Shown here piece after piece: positions 418 through 55,912 of a stretch of DNA of 64,000 nucleotides. This DNA is from Bacillota bacterium (lineage in GTDB: Bacteria > Bacillota_I > Bacilli_A > RF39 > UBA660). The notes under the pieces were generated by a model that had not been told where the DNA came from, searched no databases, and was given only the letters and a program-made list of their open reading frames with translations. The first letter of the stretch is position 1. Each line of letters starts with the position of its first letter. The stretch covers positions 158-64,157 of the forward strand of contig SVAP01000001.1 in NCBI GenBank assembly GCA_015059335.1, read 5' to 3'. Made by a program: the position numbers and the translations under genes.

Positions 418-1539
418 TTATTTACTTAAGTTATTTATTATATCCATAGTCTCATTTAACTTGCCTTTAAAAAGATGTGAATAAGTTTTAAGAGTTTCGG
501 TTGTATTGCTATGTCCCATAAATGAGGAAACAACTGTTATTGGAGCTTGATTATTAACAAGTAAAGAAGCACATGAGTGTCTGAAATCATGTAGTCGAAT
601 TTGTTTAACATTTGCTTTTTCTGCAATTTCTCCTTTTCTTCGTTGAGCTTGTTTATATGCTAAAGGTCTAATGCCATAGTCGTTACCAAATACAAAGAAC
701 TTCTTATCAAAGTTTTTAAATTTGGAAACTTCATCATAATATTTTTGTAAGTCAGATAATAGTTCATCAGCAATAGGAATCTCTCTAATACTTGAATCAG
801 TTTTCGGATTGCAGACATAGTAATTAGAAGAGTAGTTATCAATACTTAAAACTTGTTTATTTATATGAAGTCTTTTATTGCTAAAATCAATATCTTCCCA
901 AGTAAGTCCTCTAGCTTCACCAATTCTAAGTCCACAATAATATAAAGTTTGCCAAAGACATTTATATTTTAAATCATCTTCAGCAGATAAGAATTTTATA
1001 AAATCATCATACTCATATATTTGCCTTTCAGTTTTCTTCTCGTCTGGATTCTTAAACTTTTCCATTAACATTAGAAGTTGATTAAAATTAAAGTTATATC
1101 TTTTAATACCAAATCTAAGAACTGCTTTTAAAACTTTTAAAATATCATTTTTAGAGACATCTTTCATATTAGGTTGGCTATTAATGTATTTCTTCCAGTT
1201 CTCATAATAAACAATGTTAAAATCAACACACTTAATATTATATAGAGGAACTAAATACTTGCCACGATATTTATAACCAACTTTAGTACTGATTCTAACT
1301 TTATCATCCTGATATTCTAAAAAAGCATTCCATAAATCTTCAAAAGTCATTTTAGTAGGAACATTAACATTTTCTTTTAATTTATTTAAATATTCTAATT
1401 CTGCTTCTTTAGCTTCAGCTCTTGTAAAATACTTTTTACTATTATATCTTTTAGGAGTATTAAACTCATCTTTATAAACTACTCTAAAGAACCAATATTT
1501 ACCATCTTTAGTAGGTGTTTTTGCTTTATTGACAGACAT
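418..1539 (-). CDS. int: Tyrosine recombinase / phage integrase
   Basis: N-terminal arm-binding-like domain; GLRIGE, HDFRHS and LKTYSH catalytic motifs; RBS AAAGGAAGG before ATG 1539. Confidence 0.95.
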   Translation of the reverse strand: MSVNKAKTPTKDGKYWFFRVVYKDEFNTPKRYNSKKYFTRAEAKEAELEYLNKLKENVNVPTKMTFEDLWNAFLEYQDDKVRISTKVGYKYRGKYLVPLYNIKCVDFNIVYYENWKKYINSQPNMKDVSKNDILKVLKAVLRFGIKRYNFNFNQLLMLMEKFKNPDEKKTERQIYEYDDFIKFLSAEDDLKYKCLWQTLYYCGLRIGEARGLTWEDIDFSNKRLHINKQVLSIDNYSSNYYVCNPKTDSSIREIPIADELLSDLQKYYDEVSKFKNFDKKFFVFGNDYGIRPLAYKQAQRRKGEIAEKANVKQIRLHDFRHSCASLLVNNQAPITVVSSFMGHSNTTETLKTYSHLFKGKLNETMDIINNLSK

Positions 1540-1589
1540 TATAACCTTCCTTTCTTGTGTAAAATAGAAAAAACTGCTATAATGTAAAT

Positions 1590-1697
1590 GGAAATCCAAA
1601 AACATTATAGTTTCTATAATTAATATTTTTATTCTTGGTCGAATTTAAATATACGATTTCTATTTGATCTATTGTTCCAGCAATAGGTCTTTTTTTG
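1590..1697 (+). ncRNA. Putative ~105-nt small RNA antisense to the integrase upstream region
   Basis: TTGTGT-17bp-TATAAT promoter with extended -10 (1555-1583); terminator GATCTATTG/CAATAGGTC plus T-run at 1666-1697; no ORF. Confidence 0.4.
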
Positions 1698-1698
1698 T

Positions 1699-2358
1699 TT
1701 AATCAAAATCTCTAATATGTCTTTTTATTTTTCCGACTATTTCATATTTAGAATCAAATTCTTCTTTTGATATATATCTTGTAATATCATGTATTTTATT
1801 ATTTGGATTAAGAGGAAACATAGTTACTTTATCGTCATTAATGATTAATCTTCTTAAAGCTAATTTAGAGTTTTTAATATTTTTAAGCAAATAATCTCCC
1901 TCGTTAATATAATCTGAGTGAATAGCGATTACTGTATCATTCTTTTGGTAAATAGGTTCCATACAATCATCAGGAAGTATTAATCCGGTAAAATCATCAT
2001 CAGGATTAGTATCTAACCATTCTAATGGAACATTATCGATTGCTTTTAAAACTAATGCATTTTTTTCATTATATTTATAAATAGGTAATTCTTTTGGTGC
2101 ATTAAAATTTTCTTCGAAAGCTTCAGCATATGCTTTTTCATAATTAGGATTTTCATCAGTCAAGGCATATGTTTTAACATTGAAGTAATCTGCTATTTCA
2201 ATAATGTATTCCATCTTAGGATAAGTTCTACCTTTAGCCCAGTCACAAAAAGTTGTATATTTAACTCCTAGAAATTTAGCAACTTCTTCTCTAGTAGAAT
2301 TATGTATTTTTAATAGATTTTGTATATTCTTTGCAAAAACTTCTTTGCTATTTGCCAT
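1699..2358 (-). CDS. CI/Stl-like repressor: XRE HTH plus degenerate S24 peptidase domain
   Basis: HTH 'REEVAKFLGVKYTTFCDWAKGRTYP'; C-terminal S24-like 'DDCMEP...LRRL...PLNPN...VGKI'. Confidence 0.9.
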   Translation of the reverse strand: MANSKEVFAKNIQNLLKIHNSTREEVAKFLGVKYTTFCDWAKGRTYPKMEYIIEIADYFNVKTYALTDENPNYEKAYAEAFEENFNAPKELPIYKYNEKNALVLKAIDNVPLEWLDTNPDDDFTGLILPDDCMEPIYQKNDTVIAIHSDYINEGDYLLKNIKNSKLALRRLIINDDKVTMFPLNPNNKIHDITRYISKEEFDSKYEIVGKIKRHIRDFD

Positions 2359-2380
2359 TTTTACCACCTCTGATACTATC

Positions 2381-2430
2381 TTACATTATCTCGTAATTTA
2401 TGTCAAGTTAAAAATGCATAAAATTATGCA
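2381..2430. promoter_or_regulatory. Genetic switch region with palindromic operator candidates
   Basis: TGCATAA-AA-TTATGCA palindrome at 2415-2430; TTAC-N8-GTAA at 2381-2396 resembles TACGA-N5-TCGTA just after cro (2707-2721). Confidence 0.5.
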
Positions 2431-2504
2431 AAATGCATATTTAGGTATTTACAAAAGAAAAGAAATATTATATTATTGATTTATCATAGGAAGGAGGAAA
2501 AGGG

Positions 2505-2705
2505 ATGAAAATAACATTAAAAGCTTTACGAATCAATTCAAAGCTAACACTGGAAGAAGCTTCGAAAAAGATTGGAATTAGTAGAGAAACATTAAGAAGT
2601 TATGAAACATTTAAAACTGCACCAGACTTAAAATTATTACCTAAAATTTTAAAAGTTTATAATGCAGATATAAATGATGTGAAGTTTGAAGATGAAGAAA
2701 ACTAA
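2505..2705 (+). CDS. Cro-like XRE HTH regulator
   Basis: 'LKALRINSKLTLEEASKKIGISRETLRSYE'; divergent from the repressor; strong RBS. Confidence 0.9.
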   Translation: MKITLKALRINSKLTLEEASKKIGISRETLRSYETFKTAPDLKLLPKILKVYNADINDVKFEDEEN

Positions 2706-2772
2706 TTACGAAAAAATCGTATATTTAAATTTGACCAAGAAGTAAATAATTATAGAAAGGAAGGATTCCAAA

Positions 2773-3024
2773 ATGGGAAAAAGAAGAAAAGTATTAACAA
2801 AAAATGAAATACTCGATATAGCTCAATATCAATGGGCTAATATAAGAGATATTATGGATATAGGTGCAATTGGTAAAAACAATGCACGAATAATATTAAA
2901 TGAAATCATGGATACCTATTATGGTAATCGTGAAAAAATTAAAAATGGTTTAGTTCCTATGAGTATGGTACTTGAATATTTTGATATAAGTATTGATTCC
3001 TTACAGGTAACAACTAATGGCTAA
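2773..3024 (+). CDS. Small phage protein, possible excisionase / DNA-binding protein
   Basis: RBS; position between cro and rep; HTH-like 'ANIRDIMDIGAIGKNNAR'. Confidence 0.5.
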   Translation: MGKRRKVLTKNEILDIAQYQWANIRDIMDIGAIGKNNARIILNEIMDTYYGNREKIKNGLVPMSMVLEYFDISIDSLQVTTNG

Positions 3025-3922
3025 AAAAAGAATGTTCTCGTTGGATGTAGTAGATTTAGATTCTTTTATAGAAATGCCAGTAAGTGCTAAACTTTTATAT
3101 TATGATTTAGGAATGAGAGCAGATGATGATGGATTTGTTGGGAATCCTAAAAAAATAACGTTGTTAGCAGGATGTAATAAGGAAGATATTGAAACATTAA
3201 TAAAAAATAAATTTATTTATATGTTTTCATCAGGTGTTATAGCTATAAGACATTGGAATGTAAATAACCAGATACGAAAAGATAGATATAATGAAACATT
3301 TCGCATAGATGAAAAAAGATTATTAAAATTAGAAAATAATGTATATGAATTGAAAGATAATAGTGGTATACCAAATGACATACCAACGGTAAACACAGTT
3401 AAGTATAGTATAGGTAAGAATAGTATAGATAAGTTAAGTGTAGATAAGAAAAGTAAAGAGAAGAAAAGTTTAGAAGAGAAAAGAGAAGAAAAGATTATAG
3501 ATAACTTTTATGTTGATGTAGACGCAGGAGAAATTTTAGAATATGAAATTGTATCAGAAAAAGATAAAGTGTATAAAAACATAATTGATTATTTAAATAA
3601 TAAAATTAATGCTAACTATAGATGTAATAGTGCTAAAACGAAATCTTTAATTGATGCTAGATTAAATGAAGGGTATAAAGAAGAAGATTTTTTTCTCGTT
3701 ATAGATAAAAAATATAAAGAATGGAAAGATTCTGAAATGGAAAAGTTTTTAAGACCAGAAACTTTATTTAGTAATAAATTTGAAAGCTATTATAATCAAC
3801 CAGAAATAATGAAACAAAGAACACTAAAAGATATATCGATGGCAGAAATAGATGAAGCATTAAAAAGAGAAAAACAACAAATGGGAGATAAAACTAATAA
3901 TGACACAGTTGGAATTTATTAG
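3017..3922 (+). CDS. Phage replication initiator (replisome-organizer-like N-terminus, conserved phage C-terminal domain)
   Basis: 'MAKKRMFS...DSFIEMP...LGMRADDDGFV' N-terminus; 'IIDYLN...FLRPETLFSNKFESY' C-terminus. Confidence 0.85.
   Translation: MAKKRMFSLDVVDLDSFIEMPVSAKLLYYDLGMRADDDGFVGNPKKITLLAGCNKEDIETLIKNKFIYMFSSGVIAIRHWNVNNQIRKDRYNETFRIDEKRLLKLENNVYELKDNSGIPNDIPTVNTVKYSIGKNSIDKLSVDKKSKEKKSLEEKREEKIIDNFYVDVDAGEILEYEIVSEKDKVYKNIIDYLNNKINANYRCNSAKTKSLIDARLNEGYKEEDFFLVIDKKYKEWKDSEMEKFLRPETLFSNKFESYYNQPEIMKQRTLKDISMAEIDEALKREKQQMGDKTNNDTVGIY
3406..3450 (+). repeat. Three 15-bp tandem repeats inside rep; probable origin iterons
   Basis: TAGTATAGGTAAGAA / TAGTATAGATAAGTT / AAGTGTAGATAAGAA followed by an A-rich tract. 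Confidence 0.6.
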
Positions 3923-5263: not shown

Positions 5264-6118
5264 ATGTTAAAAGGAAAACCATTTGTAAAATGGGCAGGTG
5301 GAAAAAGACAAATAATAGATAAACTTAAAATGTATGCTCCTGATGAGTTTAATACTTATTACGAACCATTCGTAGGTGGTGGAGCATTATTATTTGAATT
5401 ATCACCAAAAAAAGCAGTAATAAATGATTATAATGAAGAATTAATGAATGTATTTAGTTGCATTAAAGATGAAAACAAATTCAATAAAATGTGTAACGAA
5501 TTAAATCATCATGAAGCAAATCATTCAGAAGAATATTATTATGAAATAAGAAATAAAGATAGAGATAAAGCAAAATTTAAAAGAATGCCTGACTATAAAA
5601 GAAGTGCTAGAACAATTTATTTAAATAAAGCTTGTTTTAATGGGTTATATAGAGTTAATAGCAAAAATGAATTTAATGTACCGTTTAATAGAAAAGCAAA
5701 AGTAAATACATATGATGGACAAAATTTAGGCATTATTCATTCATATTTAAATTTTAGTGATGTAACACTTTTAAATACAGATTTTGAAGAAGCAGTAAAG
5801 GATGCAAAAAAAGGGGATTTTATTTATTTTGATCCTCCATATGATTCTGAAACATCAACATTCAATAGCTATACAGAAAATGGATTTGGTAAAGAAGAAC
5901 AAATAAGACTTTCAAAAGTTTATAAAGAATTAGCTGATAAAGGATGTTATGTGATGTTATCAAATCATAATACAACATTAGTAAAAGAATTATATAAAGA
6001 TTTTAATATTCATGTAATTGAAGCTAAAAGAAATATAAATGCAAATGGAAAGAAAAGGGGAAAAGTAGAAGAAGTAATTATTACAAATTACGAAAATAAA
6101 AGAGGATTTGAAGAATAA
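5264..6118 (+). CDS. dpnM: Dam-family GATC m6A methyltransferase (DpnM type)
   Basis: 'KPFVKWAGGK', 'YYEPFVGGG', 'FNGLYRVN' and DPPY motifs. Confidence 0.92.
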   Translation: MLKGKPFVKWAGGKRQIIDKLKMYAPDEFNTYYEPFVGGGALLFELSPKKAVINDYNEELMNVFSCIKDENKFNKMCNELNHHEANHSEEYYYEIRNKDRDKAKFKRMPDYKRSARTIYLNKACFNGLYRVNSKNEFNVPFNRKAKVNTYDGQNLGIIHSYLNFSDVTLLNTDFEEAVKDAKKGDFIYFDPPYDSETSTFNSYTENGFGKEEQIRLSKVYKELADKGCYVMLSNHNTTLVKELYKDFNIHVIEAKRNINANGKKRGKVEEVIITNYENKRGFEE

Positions 6119-6141
6119 AAAGCGAATAATATAATTAGGAG

Positions 6142-6918
6142 GTGTATCTCGTGGGGAAAAACATTTATTATGAACAAGAAGATTTTAAGTTGCTCCATGG
6201 AGATGCACTTTTATTGTTGAAAAAAATAGAGCCACAAAGTATAGATATGATATTTGCAGATCCACCATACTTTTTATCAGGAAATGGAATCACTTGTAGT
6301 GGTGGTAAAATGGTATCGGTAAATAAAGGTAAGTGGGATGAAAAAATATCTGTTAAAGAAAAACATAATTTCAATAAGAAATGGATAAGAGCTTGTAAGG
6401 AAGTTTTAAAAGATGATGGAACTATCTGGATAAGTGGAACAATGCACAATATTTATTCCATAGGAATGGCACTTGAAGAAGAAGGGTTTAAGATAATAAA
6501 TAACATCACCTGGAAGAAATTAAACCCACCACCTAACATTAGCTGTCGTGCTTTTGTTCACTCAACAGAAACCGTTTTATGGGCTAAAAAAGACATATCT
6601 AAAGCTAAGCATAAGTTTAATTATGATGTTATGAAAAAACTAAATAATAACAAGCAAATGAAAGATGTATGGGAAACATCATTAACTAAACCAAGTGAAA
6701 AGAAATGTGGTAAGCATCCTACACAAAAGCCAATAGAATTATTAGAAAAAATAATATTGGCATCTACAGATGAAAATGATTTAATACTAGATCCTTTTAA
6801 TGGTAGTGGAACAACTGGAATAGTGGCTAATAGATTGAAAAGAAAATATATTGGAATAGAAAAGGAAAAAGAATATTTAGATTTAACAATTAAAAGAAAG
6901 GAAAGTGATTCTAAATGA
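6142..6918 (+). CDS. dpnA: Beta-class DNA methyltransferase (DpnA type)
   Basis: 'IFADPPYFLS', 'HPTQKP', 'LDPFNGSGTTG'; between dpnM and dpnB. Confidence 0.9.
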   Translation: MYLVGKNIYYEQEDFKLLHGDALLLLKKIEPQSIDMIFADPPYFLSGNGITCSGGKMVSVNKGKWDEKISVKEKHNFNKKWIRACKEVLKDDGTIWISGTMHNIYSIGMALEEEGFKIINNITWKKLNPPPNISCRAFVHSTETVLWAKKDISKAKHKFNYDVMKKLNNNKQMKDVWETSLTKPSEKKCGKHPTQKPIELLEKIILASTDENDLILDPFNGSGTTGIVANRLKRKYIGIEKEKEYLDLTIKRKESDSK

Positions 6919-7772
6919 AAAGAGATTTTAATGAATGGTTAAGTAAATTTAAAACAAGTATATCAGATTATACTTATTATGTTGATTTTGAAAAAATATA
7001 TAAAAATGTTGATAAAGTAAAAGTGGAATTAAATATTTTAAATTCATTAATTGGTAGTCAAAACATTGAAGAAGAATTTCAAAATATATTAATTAAATAT
7101 CCAGAAACTTTGGAATGTATTCCATTATTATTAGCAGTTCGTTCTCGTGAGATATTTATTAAAGATCAAATGAATGAATATTTATTTAAATTTGATAAAA
7201 TGATTTATTCCATAGAAGATTACATAAGATTTATGAGAGAATCAGGATTATTTGATTTGTTACAAAATCATATTATAAATAACCTTTATGATTATGTTTT
7301 AGGAATAGAGGTTGGATTAGATTCTAATGGTAGAAAAAATCGTGGTGGACATCTAATGGAAAATCTTGTTGAAGAATATATCGAAAAAGCAGGATATAAA
7401 AAAGATATTAGCTACTTCAAAGAAATGTATTTATCTGATATTGAGAAAAAATGGAATTTAGATTTATCTGCTATGTCTGGCAATAATGTATCTACAAAAA
7501 GATTTGATTTTGTTATTAAAACAGATAATCAAGTATATGTAATAGAAACTAATTTTTATTCAAGTGGTGGTTCAAAGTTAAATGAAACTGCTAGAAGCTA
7601 TAAGATGTTAGCTGAAGAATCTAAAAAAGTAAATGGTGTAACATTTATATGGTTTACTGATGGAATAGGATGGTTAAGTGCCAGAAAAAATCTAGAAGAA
7701 ACATTCAATGAGATGGAAACTATTTATAACATAGTAGACTTAGAAAATGGAATTATTAATAATTTAAAATAA
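6915..7772 (+). CDS. dpnB: DpnII-family type II restriction endonuclease (GATC)
   Basis: 'GIEVGLDSNGRKNRGGHLME', 'KRFDF', 'IETNFY...GGSKLNETARSY', 'WFTDGIGW'. Confidence 0.92.
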   Translation: MKRDFNEWLSKFKTSISDYTYYVDFEKIYKNVDKVKVELNILNSLIGSQNIEEEFQNILIKYPETLECIPLLLAVRSREIFIKDQMNEYLFKFDKMIYSIEDYIRFMRESGLFDLLQNHIINNLYDYVLGIEVGLDSNGRKNRGGHLMENLVEEYIEKAGYKKDISYFKEMYLSDIEKKWNLDLSAMSGNNVSTKRFDFVIKTDNQVYVIETNFYSSGGSKLNETARSYKMLAEESKKVNGVTFIWFTDGIGWLSARKNLEETFNEMETIYNIVDLENGIINNLK

Positions 7773-9102: not shown

Positions 9103-9648
9103 ATGCCTAGAAAAGAGAAGTTTTCAAAAGAAGATTTAATAAAAGGAGGAGTTGACTTTGTAAGAAAGAACGGAATTGAACAGTTAAATGCACGAAATTT
9201 AGCAGAATTTATTGGGTGTTCAACCCAACCAATATTTAGAAACTATACAAATATTGAAGAATATAAAAATGATTTAAAAAAAGCACTGCACGAAAATTAC
9301 AAACAATTTATACATGAAAATACTGATAAAAATAATTATTGTATATCTGTTTGTTATGCATATGCACTATATGCTAAAACTGAACCCAACATATTTAAAG
9401 CATTATTTATAACATCATTAGCTGGTTCTAGAACAATTAATGAGGTTATTAATAGTCCATGGAATATAGAAACTATAAGTCATGTAATAAACAGTTATAA
9501 CACAAGTAAGGAAAAAGCCGAAAAAATATATAGAGATATACGTTTTTATACTCATGGTATCGCAACACAAATATCATGTAATAGTATTATATTGAACGAA
9601 GAAGAATTATATAGTTTAATAGAAGATATGTTAAAAAAATTATTATAG
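9103..9648 (+). CDS. TetR/AcrR-family regulator
   Basis: 'NARNLAEFIGCSTQPIFRNY' HTH; RBS GGGAGG. Confidence 0.9.
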   Translation: MPRKEKFSKEDLIKGGVDFVRKNGIEQLNARNLAEFIGCSTQPIFRNYTNIEEYKNDLKKALHENYKQFIHENTDKNNYCISVCYAYALYAKTEPNIFKALFITSLAGSRTINEVINSPWNIETISHVINSYNTSKEKAEKIYRDIRFYTHGIATQISCNSIILNEEELYSLIEDMLKKLL

Positions 9649-9663
9649 AAATGGAGTGTTATT

Positions 9664-10170
9664 ATGACTTTAAAAGATTTAGAAAAGAAAAATGAAAATA
9701 TTAATCTTGATAATTATATTGAATTTAGGGAATATGTTAAATTACATATGGAACATCCAGAATGGCTTGGTGATTTTACTAAAGAAGATTTAGAAACAAT
9801 GATTAAAACTAATTCTAAGATTTGGATATATTATTTAAATCAAGAAGAAGTATGTTCTATGATGTTAATACCTGCTACTAAAGAAGCATTAGAAAAATTT
9901 GACATAAATTTGGATTATAATGATGTAGTAGATTATGGACCTATGATGGTGAACCCAAAGTTTGTTGGACATGGGCTACAATATCAAATGTTACAAGAAA
10001 TAGATAAGTATAGTATAAAACATAATTATAAATATGCAGTAGGAACAATTCATCCGGATAATATATATTCAATAAGAAATCTATTAAAAGATGAATTTGA
10101 ATTAGTAAATTATAAAGAATTTAAACGAGGACCAAGAAATATATATATGAAAAAACTAACTAGAAATTAG
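9664..10170 (+). CDS. GNAT-family acetyltransferase
   Basis: 'VNPKFVGHGLQ' acetyl-CoA motif; 'HPDNIYSIRNLLK'. Confidence 0.85.
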   Translation: MTLKDLEKKNENINLDNYIEFREYVKLHMEHPEWLGDFTKEDLETMIKTNSKIWIYYLNQEEVCSMMLIPATKEALEKFDINLDYNDVVDYGPMMVNPKFVGHGLQYQMLQEIDKYSIKHNYKYAVGTIHPDNIYSIRNLLKDEFELVNYKEFKRGPRNIYMKKLTRN

Positions 10171-10297
10171 ATTTTATAATACCTAAAATCTAATTTCTTT
10201 ATTTTATCATTAAAACCAATTGTTACCGTCAAAAATAAAATGTTTGATAAAAAAACAGTTTCGTGATAGAATACTCTCAAACAAAAAGAGGGATATT

Positions 10298-12157
10298 ATG
10301 TCAAAAGTAGATTTTAGTAAGAAAATGTCAACTATTATAGAGAATAAAATTGATGCATTAGAAAACTTAAATTATAATGAGTTTTTGAAAAAAGATGATT
10401 ATTTTGAATTAGCGCTATGTCTAGCTTATTTAACTTTATCAAAAGAAAAAATAATTGATAAAGAACTTAAAAATCCTAGAAGATTAGATAGATTAAAAAA
10501 ACATGTTCCTACAATAGATATTGATGCACTATTTAGTCAAGGATTTTCTGATAAAATGCCTATAATTTCCAACTCAAAAGAGGATAATAATTTATGGATT
10601 TTAGATAATATAAGAGACTCAATTATGCATGAAATGCTTGAAATTGATGAAATTAAAAAATGTTTAGTTATTAAGAATGACTATTATGATAGAGATTTGG
10701 AATGTGAAATACCTTTTTCATGGATTGTTGATTATGCAAAATATGATATATTGGGCAAAAAAATATCTAACAAATACACATTTAAAGGTTTTTATTACAA
10801 TAAAAACAAGAAAAACTATTCATATTTAAATACAAAAAAAGAAATATTAAACACTATTTTATATAGTGTGAATATTACTGGAAACAAATTCAATATAAAA
10901 AAAATTGAAAAAAGAATAGCAGAAATATTTAAAGAATGTAGTTTAAATAATATAGATGAAAAAATCATAAAAAAATATAAAAATCAAATCAATATTAATA
11001 AAAAACATTATAATGAAAAATATTTAATATCGTTTTATTATGCGGCTGATACAGTTAAAAATAAAATAAGTCAAGAATTTCCAGATATAACATTAGATAT
11101 TTATATTAACGAAAGAAAAAATAATTTAATAAATCAAGCATCTAGAAAATTAGCTAATTATTATACAAGTTATGATTTACTATGTAGCGGATTAAATGAA
11201 TTAATAAAACCAAAGGGAATTATACTTTTAAATTATTTAACTTCTATTATAGAAAATTTAGGTAGTGGTGTAAAAGATATAAATACTACTACTAAAGAGA
11301 AAATGTGTTTAATTAATTCAATTTTAACTAATGAAAAAAAACAATATAGTTCTTTAAATGATATTTATAATGAATTTTATAGGACATTAAATATATTAAG
11401 AATGATATGTATAAATACTTATGGCATATGTACGTTAGTAATTAATAATAGTCATTTATATAAAAAATATTATGAAAAAAGTAATAATGATATATTAGAA
11501 TCATGCACAATTGCATATACAAATCAAGATTATTTAGAAAACGCAAAAAAACGAAAAAAAATAATTTTAGATATATTGGAACAAGAAATAAAATTATTTG
11601 AAAAACAAACACAATTAAATAAATGTACTAATATAAAAGGCGCAGTTAGTTTAAAAATATGTATCAATTCAATTTTAAATAATAAAAATCTATTAGAACA
11701 ACAATTGTGTGATTTAGAAAAAAATATAAATTTTGTGCCATATATTAATTATAACAATTACAATTCAGAAAGAATTAATGAAATATCTTCTACAATAAAC
11801 AATTACTTCAATCATTTTTTTAAATGTCAAACAGTAAAAGGAAAGAAAAAAGTAAAAAAAGTAATTAGCAAAATACTGGATATAAAAATAGAAGAAGAAA
11901 CAAAATATATATATAGATATTGTAATAATTCAAATGAAGTTATTGAAATTATAAGAAACTGTTTATCACATATAGGGAGAATAAATATTATACAAGATGA
12001 TTACAACGAAGCAAAAGTAATATTTAATGATTATGATAATAATCATATTCATTCAGGAACTGTTGTTATGCCGTATAAACAATTTATAAAAGTATTAAAT
12101 TATCCATTATCAAAAACTGATGAAAACAAAAATTTAAAAACATTAACAATTAAATAA
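10298..12157 (+). CDS. 619-aa protein with two HEPN-like RxxxxH motifs (putative dual-HEPN RNase)
   Basis: 'NIRDSIMH' (R106/H111) and 'IIRNCLSH' (R553/H558); own promoter TTGATA-17-TAGAAT, RBS and terminator. Confidence 0.6.
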   Translation: MSKVDFSKKMSTIIENKIDALENLNYNEFLKKDDYFELALCLAYLTLSKEKIIDKELKNPRRLDRLKKHVPTIDIDALFSQGFSDKMPIISNSKEDNNLWILDNIRDSIMHEMLEIDEIKKCLVIKNDYYDRDLECEIPFSWIVDYAKYDILGKKISNKYTFKGFYYNKNKKNYSYLNTKKEILNTILYSVNITGNKFNIKKIEKRIAEIFKECSLNNIDEKIIKKYKNQININKKHYNEKYLISFYYAADTVKNKISQEFPDITLDIYINERKNNLINQASRKLANYYTSYDLLCSGLNELIKPKGIILLNYLTSIIENLGSGVKDINTTTKEKMCLINSILTNEKKQYSSLNDIYNEFYRTLNILRMICINTYGICTLVINNSHLYKKYYEKSNNDILESCTIAYTNQDYLENAKKRKKIILDILEQEIKLFEKQTQLNKCTNIKGAVSLKICINSILNNKNLLEQQLCDLEKNINFVPYINYNNYNSERINEISSTINNYFNHFFKCQTVKGKKKVKKVISKILDIKIEEETKYIYRYCNNSNEVIEIIRNCLSHIGRINIIQDDYNEAKVIFNDYDNNHIHSGTVVMPYKQFIKVLNYPLSKTDENKNLKTLTIK

Positions 12158-12265
12158 TTATAAACGTAAACAAAGAAATAGTTGTGTTATATTTCTTTGT
12201 TTTGTTGTTTTTAAAAAAGTAATAATATGGTATAATTTATATAGAAAAAATTAAGGAGAATCGTT

Positions 12266-13358
12266 ATGGATACAAAAGAACAAAAAAATATTTTGAATTT
12301 TTACAAGGAAAAAGTTTTAGAACTTTGGAGGTCGCTTTGAAGCAGATAAAAAACTAAAGGAAATTGAAGAGTTAGAGAAAGAAACTTTAAAGCCAAATTT
12401 TTGGAATGATACAAAGTATAGCGAAGAAGTAATATCAAAAATTAATCAAGTGAAATCAAAAGTAAATAATATTAAAGAATTAAAAGAAAAAATCGATAAT
12501 AATTTGGATATAATTGATTTAGTTGATGATAATGAAATGTTGGAATTAATTGATAATGATATTTTAGAAATTAAAAAATTATATGAAACTGTAGAACTAG
12601 AATTATTACTAAACGGACCATATGATTCAAACAATTGCATATTGGAAATTCATTCAGGAGCTGGGGGTACAGAAAGTTGTGATTGGGCTAATATGCTTTA
12701 TAGAATGTATCAAAGATATGCAGAGCAAAATAATTATAAAACTGAAGTTATTGATTTAGTTGATGGTGATGAAGCAGGAATTAAAAGTGTATATTTTTTA
12801 ATCAAAGGTGAAAATGCATATGGATATCTAAAAAGTGAGAAAGGCGTTCATAGATTAGTTAGAATATCTCCGTTTGACTCTAACAGTAGAAGACATACAT
12901 CATTTGCATCTGTAGAAGTAACTCCGGAAATAAATAATGATATTGAAATTGAAATTAAAGAAAGTGATTTAAAAGTTGATGTGTATAGAAGTAGTGGTGC
13001 TGGTGGACAACATGTTAATACAACAGATTCTGCAGTTCGTATAACACATATTCCTACTAAAATAGTAGTAACATGTCAAAATGAAAGAAGTCAAATTAAA
13101 AATAGAGAAACAGCTATGAAAGTTCTAAAAAGTAAATTAGCATTGTTAGAATTAGAAAAACAAGAATCTGAACTTAGTAAAATTAAAGGAGTTCAAATGG
13201 CCAATGAATTTGGTTCACAAATAAGAAGTTATGTAATGCATCCATATTCAATGGTTAAAGATCATAGAACAAATACAGAAACTAGTAATGTTAGTAAAGT
13301 ACTAGATGGTGATTTAGAAATGTTTATTAATTCATATTTAAAAATGGAGGTAAAATAA
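12266..13358 (+). CDS. prfB: Peptide chain release factor 2 with programmed +1 frameshift
   Basis: SPF and GGQ motifs; short ORF from ATG 12266 ends GGAGG-TCG-CTT-TGA (CTT 12335, TGA 12338); +1 frame stays open to 13358. Confidence 0.97.
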
Positions 13359-25661: not shown

Positions 25662-25692
25662 TTAAAAATATATTATAATAAACAACGTGAAC

Positions 25693-25800
25693 GAAGTACC
25701 GTAGACAGTAGGGGCATATGCTTAATAATCCTACCGAGGAACTTTTAAAGATAAAGTCTTTAAAACCTTTGTATGTCTGCGCATATAAAGGTTTTTATAT
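25693..25800 (+). promoter_or_regulatory. L10 leader (attenuator)
   Basis: CCGTAGACAGTAGG...CCTACCGAGG core plus terminator AAAACCTTT...AAAGGTTTTT before rplJ. Confidence 0.85.
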
Positions 25801-25831
25801 TACGGTATTTTAATAATAGAGGAGGTGTAGT

Positions 25832-38064: not shown

Positions 38065-40137
38065 ATGGCTCGTACAAGTTCATTAGAAAAAACTCGTAAT
38101 CTAGGAATTATGGCCCATATAGATGCTGGTAAAACTACTACTACTGAACGTGTATTATACCACACTGGTAAAATCCATAAAATTGGTGAAACACATGATG
38201 GTGCTGCACAAATGGACTGGATGGAACAAGAACAAGAACGTGGTATTACAATCACTTCAGCAGCAACTACTGCTTTCTGGAAAGATCATAGATTTAATAT
38301 CATCGATACTCCAGGACACGTAGACTTCACTATTGAAGTTTCTCGTAGTTTACGTGTACTAGATGGTGCAGTAGCGCTTCTTGATGCACAAGCAGGTGTT
38401 GAACCTCAAACTGAAACAGTATGGCGTCAAGCAACTGAATTTAAAGTTCCTAGAATTATATTCATTAACAAAATGGATAAAATGGGGGCAAATTTTGAAT
38501 ACAGTTTAGGAACTATCGAAAGTAGACTTGGAGTTAATGCTAAACCAATCGAATGGCCAATCGGAGCAGAAAGTGAATTCCGTGGTGTTATCGATTTAGT
38601 AACAATGAAAGCTTACGAATTCGATGGTAAACCTGAAGAAATTGCAAAAGAAATAGAAATACCTGAAGACTTAAAAGCAACAGCTGAAGAAAAAAGAGCA
38701 GAGTTATTAGAAGCAATTGCTGAATATGATGATGAATTAATGGAAAAATATCTAGAAGGTGAAGAAATACCTGTTGATATGATTAAAAAAGCTATCAGAA
38801 AAGGTGTTCTTGCTGTAGAATTCTTCCCAGTAATGTGTGGTACTGCATTAGGTAATAAAGGTGTTAAGCCAATGTTAGATGCAGTAGTTGACTACATGCC
38901 ATCACCATTAGATATTCCAGCAATTAAATGTACAGATATGAATGGTAATGAAGCTGAAAGACATCCATCTGACAACGAACCATTTAGTGCATTAGCGTTC
39001 AAAGTTATGACTGACCCTTATGTTGGTAGATTAACATTCTTTAGAGTTTATTCAGGAAAAATGACAAGTGGTTCATATATCCTAAATTCAACTAAAAACA
39101 CTAAAGAAAGAATCGGGCGTATCTTACAAATGCATGCTAACAACAGAACTGAAATCTCTGAAGTATATACTGGAGATATAGCTGCAGCAGTAGGTCTTAA
39201 AAATACTACAACAGGTGATACACTTTGTGATGAAAAGAAACCTGTTATTCTAGAATCAATGGTATTCCCTGAACCAGTTATTCAATTAGCTGTTGAACCT
39301 AAATCAAAAGCTGATCAAGAAAAAATGGGAACTGCATTACAAAAATTAGCAGAAGAAGATCCAACATTCAAAGTTCATACTGATCATGAAACAGGTCAAA
39401 CTGTTATCGCTGGTATGGGTGAACTTCACCTTGATGTACTAGTAGACAGAATGAAAAGAGAATTTGATGTAGAAGCTAATATTGGTCAACCACAAGTTGC
39501 TTACCGTGAAACTTTAACTCAAACTGCTGAGTGTGAAGGTAAATATATTAAACAATCTGGTGGTAGAGGTCAATATGGACACGTATGGATTAAATTCGAA
39601 CCTAACACAGATAAAGGTTATGAATTTGTTGACGCAATCGTTGGTGGAGTTGTTCCTCGTGAATATATTCCAGTAACAGATAAAGGATTACAAGAAGCAT
39701 TAGAAACTGGTGTATTAGCTGGTTATCCAATGATAGATGTTAAAGCAACTTTATTTGATGGTTCATATCATGATGTTGACTCATCAGAAATGGCATTCAA
39801 AATTGCTGCATCTATGGCTTTAAAAGAAGCTAAAAATAAATGTAAACCTGTATTATTAGAACCAATAATGAAAGTTGAAGTAGTAACACCAGATGAATAC
39901 TTCGGTAACGTTATGGGAGATATTACTTCAAGACGTGGTAAACCATTAGGACAAGAAACAAGAGGAAACGCTATTATGTTATCAGCAATGGTACCACTAT
40001 CAGAAATGTTCGGTTACGCTACTAGCTTACGTTCTAATACACAAGGTAGAGGTAACTTTGTAATGACATTTGATCATTATGAACAAGTTCCTAAAAATAT
40101 TAGTGAAGAAATCATCAAGAAAAATGGTGGAAACTAA
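38065..40137 (+). CDS. fusA: Elongation factor G
   Basis: '[13 protein letters not shown]', 'DTPGHVDF'. Confidence 0.99.
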
Positions 40138-47596: not shown

Positions 47597-49324
47597 ATGA
47601 AGAATAAAGGGTTTACTCTTGTAGAAGTTTTAGCTGCAGTTACAATAATATTAATGATTACTATTATTGCAGTGCCAACTAGCATGAAGTTTATAGAAAA
47701 AGGAAAAAATCAACAATATGAAATGTTAGAAAAACAAATACTAAGTGAGGCTAGTAAATACTATATAAAGAATAAAGATAATAAATGTATTGAATTAAGT
47801 AATTTAATAAATGGTATTGATGACAAATTTTTAAATGGAACCAAAATAATTGATCCAAGAAACAATAAAGAATTAAAAGGTATTGTTGAAGTAAGAATTA
47901 ATGAAAATAAAGTGAAATATAACTTGATTAGTGAAACATCAGATATTTGTACAGTTGATGGTAGTCAAGAACCGGCAGAAGTTCCAGATAATGTAGAGAT
48001 TTTTTATACTTACAGTCTTGTTGACGATAACACCGGCTATAAAGTAGGATTAGTCGATGGATTTAAAACAGCACTGAATAATAACGAAAATTATGTTGTA
48101 GATGGTGAGACTTTATGGACTGTTGGAAGCGCACTTCCTAATCCAGGTTCGACTTACGATGGTTTGCCGGTAACGGATATGAGCAATATGTTCTACAAGT
48201 GTGATAGATTAAAAGAGCTTGACTTATCTAATTTTGACACATCAAATGTAACAGATATGAGCTATATGTTCGATGGTTGTAGTTCATTAACGTCCCTTGA
48301 CTTATCTAATTTTGACACATCAAATGTAACAGATATGAGCTATATGTTTTTTAAGTGTAAAACTTTAACAGAACTAGATTTGTCCAATTTTGACACATCA
48401 AATGTAACTACTATGTGGTGGATGTTCAGTGGTTGTAGTTCATTAACGTCCCTTGATGTAACTAATTTTGATACATCAAATGTAAGTAATATGAGACGTA
48501 TGTTCAGTGGTTGTAGTTCATTAACGTCCCTTGACTTGAGTAGTTTTGACACATCAAATGTAACTATTATTGATGGTATGTTTAGTGGTTGTAGTTCATT
48601 AACATCCCTTGATGTAACTAATTTTGACACATCAAATGTAACATATATGAATGGTATGTTCGATGGTTGTAGTTCATTAACGTCCCTTGATGTAACTAAT
48701 TTTGACACATCAAATGTAACTACTATGAGTGGTATGTTCGATGATTGTAGTTCATTAACATCCCTTGATGTAACTAATTTTGACACATCAAATGTTACAG
48801 GCATGGGTAGTATGTTCAGTGGTTGTAGTTCATTAACGTCCCTTGACTTGAGTAATTTTGATACATCAAATGTAACTACTATGAGTAGTATGTTCAGTGG
48901 TTGTAGTTCATTAACGTCCCTTGACTTGAGTAATTTTGACACATCAAATGTAACTATTATTGATGGTATGTTTAGTGGTTGTAGTTCATTAACGTCCCTT
49001 GACTTGAGTAATTTTGACACATCAAATGTAACTACTATGAGTAGTATGTTCGATGGTTGTAGTTCATTAACGTCCCTTGACTTATCTGATTGGGATACCT
49101 CTAAAGTAACGGATATGTATATGATGTTTTGGGGATGTATGGACTTAACATCCCTTGACTTGAGTAGTTTTGACACATCAAATGTAACTACTATGGGCAG
49201 TATGTTTGGAGCGTGTCACTCATTAAAGTCTGTTGTTGCAAGAACGAGTGAAGAAAAAACGAAGTTTGAATCTGCCAGAGTTTTTTTAAATTATTATATA
49301 GTAACGGTTAAGTCCGCTGAATAA
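47597..49324 (+). CDS. Type IV prepilin-like protein fused to DUF285/BspA-type leucine-rich repeats
   Basis: 'KG|FTLVEVL' N-methylation motif; 13 full 26-aa repeats 'VTxMxxMFxGCSSLTSLDLSNFDTSN'. Confidence 0.88.
   Translation: MKNKGFTLVEVLAAVTIILMITIIAVPTSMKFIEKGKNQQYEMLEKQILSEASKYYIKNKDNKCIELSNLINGIDDKFLNGTKIIDPRNNKELKGIVEVRINENKVKYNLISETSDICTVDGSQEPAEVPDNVEIFYTYSLVDDNTGYKVGLVDGFKTALNNNENYVVDGETLWTVGSALPNPGSTYDGLPVTDMSNMFYKCDRLKELDLSNFDTSNVTDMSYMFDGCSSLTSLDLSNFDTSNVTDMSYMFFKCKTLTELDLSNFDTSNVTTMWWMFSGCSSLTSLDVTNFDTSNVSNMRRMFSGCSSLTSLDLSSFDTSNVTIIDGMFSGCSSLTSLDVTNFDTSNVTYMNGMFDGCSSLTSLDVTNFDTSNVTTMSGMFDDCSSLTSLDVTNFDTSNVTGMGSMFSGCSSLTSLDLSNFDTSNVTTMSSMFSGCSSLTSLDLSNFDTSNVTIIDGMFSGCSSLTSLDLSNFDTSNVTTMSSMFDGCSSLTSLDLSDWDTSKVTDMYMMFWGCMDLTSLDLSSFDTSNVTTMGSMFGACHSLKSVVARTSEEKTKFESARVFLNYYIVTVKSAE
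48170..49228 (+). repeat. 78-bp coding tandem repeat, 13 full copies plus 1 partial
   Basis: Unit starts GTAA at 48170 and recurs every 78 bp to 49184. Confidence 0.95.
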
Positions 49325-55551: not shown

Positions 55552-55912
55552 GGGGATGAATTGATTCGACAGAAATAATGAGTTAACTATTGCAAGTCGT
55601 AGGTATGCGTTAATTCCACAAAACCGAAATAAACGGAAAAAATAATTATAACTTTGCACCTTCTTTTGCCTAATTAATTTAGGGTTGGTGTAAGCTTCTT
55701 TTATTTCCTTGTTCACGGGAAATATTAGGGGCTCATATTTAGTGAACTATATTATTCTATTGTCTTGCTAGAATAACGAACAATTAAAGACTTACTAATA
55801 GATAGGTTTGTCAATTTGTTTTATCTATTAGGACATTCAAAAATTGACTAAACTTGTAGATATACTAATGATTTATTTTTGGACAGGGGTTCGCTACCCC
55901 TCATCTCCACCA
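55552..55912 (+). ncRNA. ssrA: tmRNA; tag peptide (A)GKNNYNFAPSFA*
   Basis: 5' GGGGATG..GATTCGAC; 3' GGGGTTCG...CCCC-TCATCTCCACCA; resume context AAATAAAC|GGA at 55635; near smpB. Confidence 0.93.

Follow-up and report, generated by a model that had tools for sequence, protein, structure and literature searches.

A stand-alone gene upstream of prfB in a Bacillota genome encodes a protein with two HEPN motifs, a predicted single-chain ribonuclease

In the stretch of 64,000 nucleotides from a Bacillota bacterium analysed here (hereafter the window; contig SVAP01000001.1 of assembly GCA_015059335.1), the gene under study lies between a GNAT-like gene and prfB, and a TetR-like gene and a His-phosphatase gene stand upstream of the GNAT-like one; the GNAT and TetR labels are a reading of the sequences, since Pfam gave no match for either. 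The gene encodes P0001, a protein of 619 amino acids with a HEPN-type motif near each end of the chain, and the coordinates of its parts and surroundings are collected in Table 1. HEPN ribonucleases (RNases) cleave RNA without metal by means of the R and the H of an Rx4-6H motif (PMC3710099), and two HEPN domains must pair, either within one chain, as in Cas13, or between chains, as in HepT and ApeA (bioRxiv 10.64898/2026.03.20.713152). P0001 is predicted to be a single-chain dual-HEPN RNase acting as a trigger-gated, stand-alone defence effector, and a probability of about 0.5 is given to this reading as a whole.

First of all, RDSIMH and RNCLSH are the sole two Rx4H strings in P0001, which has 15 Arg and 8 His, and translation places both of them at the residues where the original prediction had read them. 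They are separated by 441 residues, close to the Lys/Asn-rich spacer of about 440 residues that had been described, and Lys and Asn together make up 156 of the 619 residues of the protein. When the protein sequence was shuffled 20,000 times, the probability of at least two Rx4H strings was 0.014, and that of at least two R[ND]xxxH strings was 0.00025. In addition, a polar residue (N, D or H) after the Arg of Rx4-6H is described as a trait of active HEPN sites (PMC3710099); D or N stands directly after the Arg in every tabulated instance of the motif, and both motifs of P0001 combine the Rx4-6H spacing with such a polar residue.

The conservation of the two motifs is the evidence that carries most of the argument. 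Across 32 homologues of 31–76% identity, R106, D107, S108, I109, M110 and H111 are all invariant, and so are R553, N554, S557, H558 and R561, that is to say, both motifs are fixed letter for letter except at positions 555–556. In an alignment of 26 divergent sequences, which reaches down to 17% identity and includes relatives of 570–750 amino acids at 17–30% identity, the only invariant columns are R106, H111, R553 and H558, while N554, R561, D578, N127, G376 and N383 are near-invariant. Moreover, in 118 of the 123 family proteins of at least 450 amino acids, R[DN]xxxH occurs within the first 35% of the chain and again within the last 25%; among the five exceptions, two are N-terminally truncated, two have aberrant or truncated C-termini, and one is a full-length protein with K in place of R106. 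The conservation among homologues that had been proposed as a check on the motifs is thus seen down to 17% identity, and for both motifs together in these 118 proteins. Judged from these alignments, two catalytic-type HEPN motifs in one chain are very likely the defining conserved feature of the whole family.

Table 1. Coordinates in the window of the P0001 gene, the parts of its protein, its putative expression signals and the nearby element
Feature	Position	Strand	Basis
Coding sequence of P0001, 619 amino acids, dual HEPN motif	10298..12157	+	Translation ending at stop
HEPN motif 1, RDSIMH, residues 106-111 (R106, H111)	10613..10630	+	R and H invariant in 26 divergent sequences
HEPN motif 2, RNCLSH, residues 553-558 (R553, H558)	11954..11971	+	R and H invariant in 26 divergent sequences
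N-terminal HEPN-like domain (predicted), residues 1-155	10298..10762	+	AlphaFold models, pLDDT 89.1 and 90.9
C-terminal HEPN domain, pEK499_p136 type (predicted), residues 490-615	11765..12142	+	hhalign and predicted secondary structure
Central, mostly helical region, residues 200-535	10895..11902	+	Family alignment and AlphaFold model
Middle motif, residues 372-385, consensus LGINTxVxNKE	11411..11452	+	G376 and N383 near-invariant even in distant members
Antiparallel coiled-coil hairpin ("tower"), residues 409-476	11522..11725	+	Predicted model
Ribosome-binding site AAGAGGG	10286..10292	+	Read from sequence, 5 nucleotides before ATG; kept in homologue locus L001
Promoter-like site TTGATA-17-TAGAAT, TG before the -10 hexamer	10244..10272	+	Consensus scan
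Hairpin and U-rich tail	10165..10206	+	12-bp stem, -7.7 kcal/mol, z = -3.84; 0/200 shuffles as good (10165-10215 folded)
AT-rich terminator-like hairpin, 13-bp stem and U-rich tail, after the stop codon	12168..12214	+	Folding of 12158-12216
Small integrative element, 2.5 kb upstream of the P0001 gene	418-7772		Gene content

The predicted surroundings of the two motifs are alike. AlphaFold2 was run on the full-length protein with a 32-sequence alignment (predicted local distance difference test score, pLDDT, 89.1; predicted template modelling score, pTM, 0.84) and on the N-terminal domain alone with 51 sequences (pLDDT 90.9), and in these models each motif closes a helix at its C-terminal end, after which come a β-sheet of three strands and a further helix. 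The helix before and the β-rich stretch after each motif, which had been proposed from the letters alone, therefore reappear in predicted models of pLDDT 89–91. The N-terminal domain consists of helices 3–22 and 34–47, an insert of about 50 residues, the motif helix 98–110, three strands within 114–139 and helix 140–154, and the C-terminal domain consists of helices 490–509 and 513–534, the motif helix 545–556, three strands within 562–592 and helix 593–615. In the published description of the HEPN fold, Rx4-6H ends helix 3 and inserts occur between helices 2 and 3, and in the Csx1 family a β-hairpin comes directly after the motif (PMC3710099); as modelled, the order of helices and strands in both domains matches this description. 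Since the pTM of the full-length model is 0.84, the domains are predicted to stand in a fixed mutual arrangement.

The HEPN branch to which the profile comparisons lead is PF18736 (HEPN pEK499 p136). Its reference here was the protein at locus L016, a single-domain protein of 151 amino acids (76.9 bits) in a genome of the same family, and alignment A4 holds 29 of the 33 PF18736-labelled relatives of the L016 protein together with a second above-threshold protein. When the C-terminal domain was compared by hhalign with 30 bona fide PF18736 proteins, probabilities of 87.7% and 91.3% (E 3.4e-6 and 9.4e-7) were obtained over 63 and 54 columns, which cover the motif, the strands and the start of the last helix. 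For the N-terminal domain the probabilities were 66% and 29% (E 5.5e-5 and 5.8e-4), and for the middle region, which served as a control, the probability was 0.3% (E 0.23, 19 columns). When the N- and C-terminal domains are compared with each other, they align at the motif (E 0.0018). The C-terminal domain shares with pEK499_p136 proteins the pattern IRN[SC]x[SA]H, the strands with F/L-x-D-Y-[DN] and the start of the last helix; bona fide PF18736 members, however, are single-domain proteins of about 150–200 amino acids, whereas P0001 has two domains and a helical spacer of about 330 amino acids within its 619, and its N-terminal copy, unlike PF18736 members, has diverged to RDSIMH. Taken together, the C-terminal domain reads as a HEPN domain of the pEK499_p136 type and the N-terminal domain as a diverged copy of the same kind, so that the part of the original prediction that looked to HEPN profiles was borne out for the former, at 88–91%, whereas the latter reached 29–66%.

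Single-sequence searches point in the same direction at a lower level. A precomputed PF18736 label, below threshold, is attached to 7 of the 90 listed homologues, and PF18736 is found at E ≤ 1 in 2 of the 32 members, the best match being residues 530–589 of P0032 (E 2.5e-4, 21.2 bits). The PF18736 cut-off of 26.6 bits was not reached, P0001 has no PF18736 match even at E ≤ 10, and a PF18736 scan of the window's own genome at E ≤ 10 returned nothing. Among the protein-language-model neighbours of residues 1–215, 26 of the 30 nearest named clusters are PF18736 (score 0.91), and the neighbours of the whole of P0001 are PF18736 clusters as well; both observations are taken as leads only.

As for the extent of the family, 90 homologues of P0001 were found at E ≤ 1e-3 in a collection of 5.8 billion proteins, nearly all of them about 600–680 amino acids long and unnamed, and when 1.84 billion proteins are clustered at 50% identity, 91 representatives belong to the family; the few family records that bear a name are called "hypothetical protein". 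A profile search with the family alignment added no members to those already obtained with the single sequence. Three sister proteins were found in genomes of the same bacterial family, namely one of 457 amino acids with RDSLVH and RNSVEH (L014, 745–2118, minus strand), one of 610 amino acids with RNKLAH and RNAIAH (L018, 1396–3228, minus strand) and one of 570 amino acids with RNKLAH and RNSISH (L021, 145–1857, plus strand). Against the family profile, the L018 protein aligns over about 100 columns of the N-terminal domain (probability 65%, E 6e-5) and the L021 protein more weakly (18%), and two of the three sister proteins show sub-threshold PF18736 matches at the C-terminus. Because these proteins carry R[DN]xxxH near each end, the dual-HEPN layout appears to extend past the P0001 family itself.

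Between the two domains lies the central region of about 330 amino acids, which is the most variable part of the protein: distant members have insertions of up to about 130 residues there, and the region of the coiled-coil hairpin is missing. One short motif in it, LGINTxVxNKE at residues 372–385, is nevertheless preserved across the family. The region is putatively a regulatory or sensor module. At the tip of the predicted hairpin stands Cys443 (residues 442–444, window 11622–11630), which is kept in most close homologues and not in distant ones. This cysteine recalls residues at the apex of other coiled-coil proteins through which pairing takes place, and no second Cys or His partner was seen.

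The gene is a patchy accessory gene. It is present in 2 of 61 related genomes, that is, the window's own and one congener; among the 36 other genomes of the family, 1 has it. Of 399 genomes drawn from the class, 3 gave matches, one of them to a distant relative of 457 amino acids and one, in G069 (E 8.6e-4, 103 columns of the coiled-coil region), probably spurious, and of 399 drawn from the phylum, the window's own is the single one with the gene. These tallies are lower bounds, three candidates having been scored per genome. Between the two congeners the P0001 gene is 76% identical and prfB 91% identical. The family as a whole is rare and unnamed, and it occurs in small-genome gut bacteria.

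The site upstream of prfB is variable, and defence genes lie not far away, both of which had been stated in the original prediction and agree with what was found. In four related genomes the site holds different genes: G001 has hpf, secA and a split AAA ATPase there, G002 has a PfkB fusion and a KilA-N gene, and G004 and G005 have others again. The integrative element 2.5 kb upstream contains a tyrosine integrase (418–1605, minus strand), an S24/HTH repressor (1699–2367, minus strand), phage-type genes, a Phg_2220_C protein and an HNH nuclease, together with a complete DpnII restriction-modification system composed of two methyltransferases (5264–6918) and the DpnII endonuclease (6915–7772). 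In the congener, locus L001 has at 2128–3237 an extra open reading frame (ORF) of 369 amino acids between the dual-HEPN gene and prfB, with no match in Pfam or PADLOC; it is another sign that the site is a hotspot of gene gain and loss. prfB itself, which encodes release factor 2, occupies 12267–13358, with the Pfam PCRF and RF-1 match at 12450–13358. It has the classic programmed +1 frameshift, with the Shine-Dalgarno-like GGAGG at 12327–12331 and CTTTGA at 12335–12340, after which the long ORF resumes in another frame.

No conserved partner gene accompanies P0001, because the gene directly upstream varies among six distinct loci: GNAT-like in the window, NUDIX in L002 and L004, RecG in L006, DUF6512 in L008/L009 and a UvrD-like helicase in L003. 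The NUDIX gene was considered as an obligatory partner and set aside, being directly upstream in just 2 of the 6 loci; of the two NUDIX genes (L002, 9538–9936; L004, 9548–9964), the former matches the PADLOC defence candidate PDC-S07 (E 3e-45) and the latter matches weakly. A His_Phos_1 phosphatase gene stands one to three genes upstream in the window and in L002, which may be chance, synteny or a loose functional link. When the neighbours were scanned with PADLOC (53 proteins from six loci, a small sample in which some loci come from related organisms), defence-type neighbours were found in 3 of the 5 scanned loci with readable flanks, namely the type II DpnII restriction-modification system in the window, a type II restriction-modification system, PDC-S72 (Fic) and, directly upstream, PDC-S07 in L002, and PDC-S05 three genes downstream in L004. 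In L001, where one neighbour was scanned, there was no PADLOC match.

How, then, would P0001 work? It is proposed that the N- and C-terminal HEPN domains pack together in one molecule, and that the two motifs would jointly make up a single site that cleaves RNA without metal, as happens in Cas13 and in homodimers of HEPN proteins. The module between them may keep this site closed or recognise a trigger, for example a phage protein or a nucleic acid. Once triggered, the enzyme would cut cellular or phage RNA and stop the growth of the phage, and defence in the manner of abortive infection is taken as its most likely role. An intramolecular HEPN pseudo-dimer is the most economical reading, because the two motifs are co-retained at the ends of the chain and contain the sole invariant residues. 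The parts of this proposal differ in strength. That P0001 is an RNase is probable; if it is one, pairing of the two motifs within the chain is somewhat favoured; and for a role in defence, to which the genomic context in a handful of loci points, the chances appear evenly balanced.

Several results weigh against this reading. The alignments of the N-terminal domain with PF18736 span just 22 and 21 columns around the motif; P0001 has no match in the Pfam, PADLOC or PDB sequence profiles, and in NCBIfam its single match is at chance level (RutC, E 0.16, 12 bits versus a cut-off of 169.1). Foldseek against the PDB gave no match at E ≤ 1e-3 for the full model or the N-terminal domain, and with the BFVD viral library the full model likewise had no match at that threshold. 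VIA-align of the full model matched only the coiled coil and no HEPN structure, and the best VIA-align Z of the N-terminal domain among 48,161 chains was 3.6, which is low for a confident model, were it a canonical HEPN bundle. Since the structure searches gave none, the N-terminal domain modelled alone is not close to a solved HEPN, and since none of them retrieved a solved HEPN, the HEPN fold is counted as unconfirmed. Sequence searches with P0001, its family alignment and alignment A4 found no related chain of solved structure, and this lack of solved PF18736 relatives, which may explain part of the negative structure searches, weakens them without removing them. Of the single-chain dual-HEPN RNase originally predicted, the two motifs in one chain and the HEPN profile of the C-terminal domain therefore stood, while no solved HEPN fold came back. 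On the side of pairing, an intermolecular arrangement is equally compatible with the data. On the side of defence, the neighbour sample is small, and L006 and L008 gave only weak partial PADLOC matches (PbeA, Cas3, DpdF, a SIR2-associated pAgo partner and ThsA), mostly to helicase or ATPase domains of a general kind, and neither locus shows a clear defence system. Relatives were not found in viral contigs (0 of 21 candidate stretches confirmed), plasmid records or phage records, and no antitoxin or immunity partner is evident beside the gene.

The first alternative concerns the partner of each HEPN domain. The domains might pair between chains (N with N', C with C', or N with C'), in a dimer or higher oligomer held together by the coiled-coil hairpin, so that at least two sites would form and activation would come about by oligomerisation. 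Most HEPN RNases do pair between chains (bioRxiv 10.64898/2026.03.20.713152), the hairpin of P0001 is long and exposed in the prediction, with a tip Cys kept in most close homologues, and the N-terminal domain folds confidently alone (pLDDT 90.9). However, the pTM of 0.84 for the monomer suggests a defined intramolecular arrangement, a 1:1 pairing of N with C agrees with the co-retention of both motifs in 118 of 123 proteins, and distant members that retain the two motifs have lost the coiled coil or have other sequence in its place. Pairing between chains is thus regarded as unlikely.

The second alternative concerns the role. P0001 might be a cellular RNase outside defence, engaged in RNA decay, RNA processing or stress, or it might be a selfish toxin of the addiction type. 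Several of the loci do lie among housekeeping genes (prfB, RecG, His phosphatase, ABC transporters), and the lack of phage, plasmid and viral copies and of any PADLOC model would fit such a role. A housekeeping function, however, accords poorly with the patchy occurrence (2 of 61, 3 of 399 and 1 of 399 genomes) and with divergence faster than that of the neighbouring prfB, and a role outside defence in general accords poorly with the restriction-modification or defence-candidate genes near 3 of the 5 loci with readable flanks. No adjacent ORF of antitoxin size is present, the gaps on the two sides being 127 and 109 nucleotides; nor does any annotated neighbour contain an NTP-transferase domain, by which an antitoxin of the HepT/MntA type would be recognised. 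Such a cellular or selfish role is held to be quite improbable.

It could also be that P0001 is no nuclease at all, the R and H serving binding or structure in a regulatory or scaffold protein whose likeness to HEPN is superficial. The failure to retrieve a solved HEPN fold and the fact that P0001 reaches no family threshold speak for this, and inactive HEPN domains that serve as binding modules are known (PMC3710099). But according to the same source the inactive domains are those without Rx4-6H, whereas here the motif residues are the sole invariant positions, the polar residue after R is kept, and the C-terminal domain aligns to a HEPN family over 54–63 columns, so that a non-nuclease is considered very unlikely.

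The remaining question is that of Cas13. Like P0001, Cas13 (Cas13b and the compact Cas13an) is a single-protein effector with two Rx4H HEPN motifs near the ends of the chain and a non-HEPN spacer between them; unlike P0001, it is accompanied by a CRISPR array beside the gene, by cas genes and by a guide RNA, none of which is detectable for P0001. CRISPR-like arrays are present neither in the window nor in the 1.3-Mb assembly (18 contigs, 89.7% complete) nor at 13 homologue loci. Rfam gave no match at E ≤ 5 in 9600–12500 and none near the gene at gathering score, in agreement with the original statement that no array or obvious guide RNA is visible nearby. No profile of Cas13, AbiD/F or any other defence family was found for P0001 (PADLOC at E ≤ 10, Pfam) or among 26 relatives, for which PADLOC gave four isolated weak matches (Cas6, mad3, PDC-M09A and a reverse transcriptase, one member each) that were set aside as noise. 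No Cas13 chain is among the listed structure matches, lists that were filled by the long coiled coil.

In a 2024 study, Cas13 was proposed to have arisen by fusion of two AbiD/F-like defence HEPN genes, and the HEPN domains of Cas13an group with AbiD/F (PMC12165695), while those of P0001 group with pEK499_p136. Kinship with Cas13, which had been put forward as one possibility, was consequently not upheld: no Cas13 profile was found and the HEPN branch differs. The likeness appears to be one of layout only, and since the P0001 domains are drawn from another HEPN branch, it would be at most a convergent fusion. That P0001 is an RNA-guided effector of the Cas13 kind, whose guide RNA would come from another place in the genome or from a source that does not look like a CRISPR array, is scarcely credible, for although its motifs lie near both termini as in Cas13b, its size falls between those of Cas13an and Cas13bt, and an origin of Cas13 from two fused defence HEPN domains has been proposed (PMC12165695), the window, the assembly and the 13 loci have no CRISPR-like repeats, Rfam and the Cas13 profiles and chains give no match, the conserved block upstream of the gene is just about 55 nucleotides long and is made up of promoter and ribosome-binding site, and the HEPN branch is pEK499_p136 and not the AbiD/F branch of Cas13an.

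Returning to the single-chain, trigger-gated RNase, several known systems can be set beside it. The pEK499_p136 family is associated with conflict and defence and is sometimes found in operons with restriction-modification, ART/Macro or Pgl genes (PMC3710099); in a mycobacteriophage preprint, the only other paper found to name the family, pEK499_p136 appears as a weak HHpred match to a single-domain protein. ApeA is likewise a stand-alone gene whose product joins a non-catalytic sensor part to a HEPN RNase with R-N-x3-H that responds to a phage cue; with a single HEPN domain, ApeA is predicted to be a homodimer (bioRxiv 10.64898/2026.03.20.713152), whereas the P0001 family has two per chain. 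The model proposed for P0001 follows ApeA by analogy; ApeA is its closest functional and Cas13 its closest architectural counterpart. P0001 gave no match at E ≤ 10 to any PADLOC model, and so none to ApeA if PADLOC-DB 2.0 holds such a model, and none of the weak matches of its relatives was to HEPN or ApeA. AbiD and AbiF (Abi_2) are defence-associated HEPN RNases of Bacillota and the proposed ancestors of the Cas13 HEPN domains (PMC12165695). The Abi_2 Pfam domain is found neither in P0001 nor in 32 homologues nor in 19 distant relatives, and there is no RF03085 RNA beside the gene. Swt1-like proteins offer a precedent for a HEPN dyad in one chain outside CRISPR, with the differences that Swt1 is eukaryotic, is fused to PIN and has a partly conserved motif (PMC3710099), and no sequence relation to P0001 was detected.

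The domain type is already known, and what sets P0001 apart is that one chain is predicted to hold two domains of this type. Bacterial defence HEPN proteins other than Cas13 are as a rule described as homodimers, and no description of a dual pEK499_p136 protein was found in the literature searched, subscription journals lying outside its coverage. The family, a single-gene system of about 460–750 amino acids, goes unannotated because it is absent from PADLOC and below the Pfam thresholds. If the proposed pairing is right, it would be a case for comparison both in the origin of Cas13-like effectors and in the gating of an intramolecular HEPN site without a guide. If P0001 is an RNase activated by a trigger, gut Bacilli with reduced genomes, in which few defence systems are known, would gain one that consists of a single gene, and if it is merely a HEPN toxin, an unnamed family would still receive its correct annotation. 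A more far-reaching possibility, offered tentatively, is that of an independent, CRISPR-free architecture of the Cas13 type, in which pEK499_p136 HEPN domains were fused around a helical sensor and a closed site is opened by a phage protein or nucleic acid. In that case single-chain HEPN pseudo-dimers would have arisen at least twice, and the sister families (457–750 amino acids) would belong to a broader class, so far unrecognised, of collateral RNases in low-G+C Bacillota that are encoded by one gene and gated by a trigger. In its boldest form, the central module may bind an RNA ligand that confers target specificity.

The gene is framed by putative expression signals of its own, as had been predicted. 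A longer in-frame TTG start is present at 10220 and would add 26 residues; it was dropped, for in 31 of the 32 aligned homologues the first residues are the MSK/MAK of the ATG. The ATG is preferred as the start because these homologues begin there and because AAGAGGG stands 5 nucleotides before it. The promoter-like site is the sole promoter evidence from the consensus scan, which overall gave 24 sites versus 26.6 in shuffles, that is, no enrichment; it is a consensus match only and hence a putative promoter. The claim that the gene has a promoter of its own accords with this match and with the block of about 55 nucleotides before the ATG, which is near-identical in the 76%-identical homologue locus L001. 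Since the sequence farther upstream is unrelated there, the short promoter region appears to be conserved together with the gene as a single unit.

On the other side, the hairpin after the stop codon folds at -14.1 kcal/mol (z = -3.97; none of 200 shuffles of 12158–12216 folded as well), and the consensus terminator scan missed it because that scan demands G+C pairs. The hairpin before the promoter is predicted to end the upstream GNAT-like gene and to insulate the P0001 gene. The ribosome-binding site and terminator of the original prediction thus have their counterparts in AAGAGGG and in a hairpin with a U-run on both sides of the gene, and the intergenic gaps are filled by hairpin, promoter and ribosome-binding site. 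The G+C content is 0.19–0.21 in the gene versus about 0.25 in the flanks.

A few observations lie apart from the P0001 gene. The only Rfam matches of the window at gathering score are the tmRNA at 55552–55912 (136 bits) and a ribosomal protein L10 leader at 25681–25806 (84 bits). In a coding region at 48218–49206 there is a 78-bp tandem repeat (12.7 copies, 81% matches), which probably encodes a 26-residue repeat of a surface protein. Outside the window, contig C12 of the same genome has at about 39900–40030 three intergenic copies of the 18-bp palindrome ATGTTTCACGTGAAACAT, about 60 bp apart, which we take to resemble the parS consensus of Bacillota.

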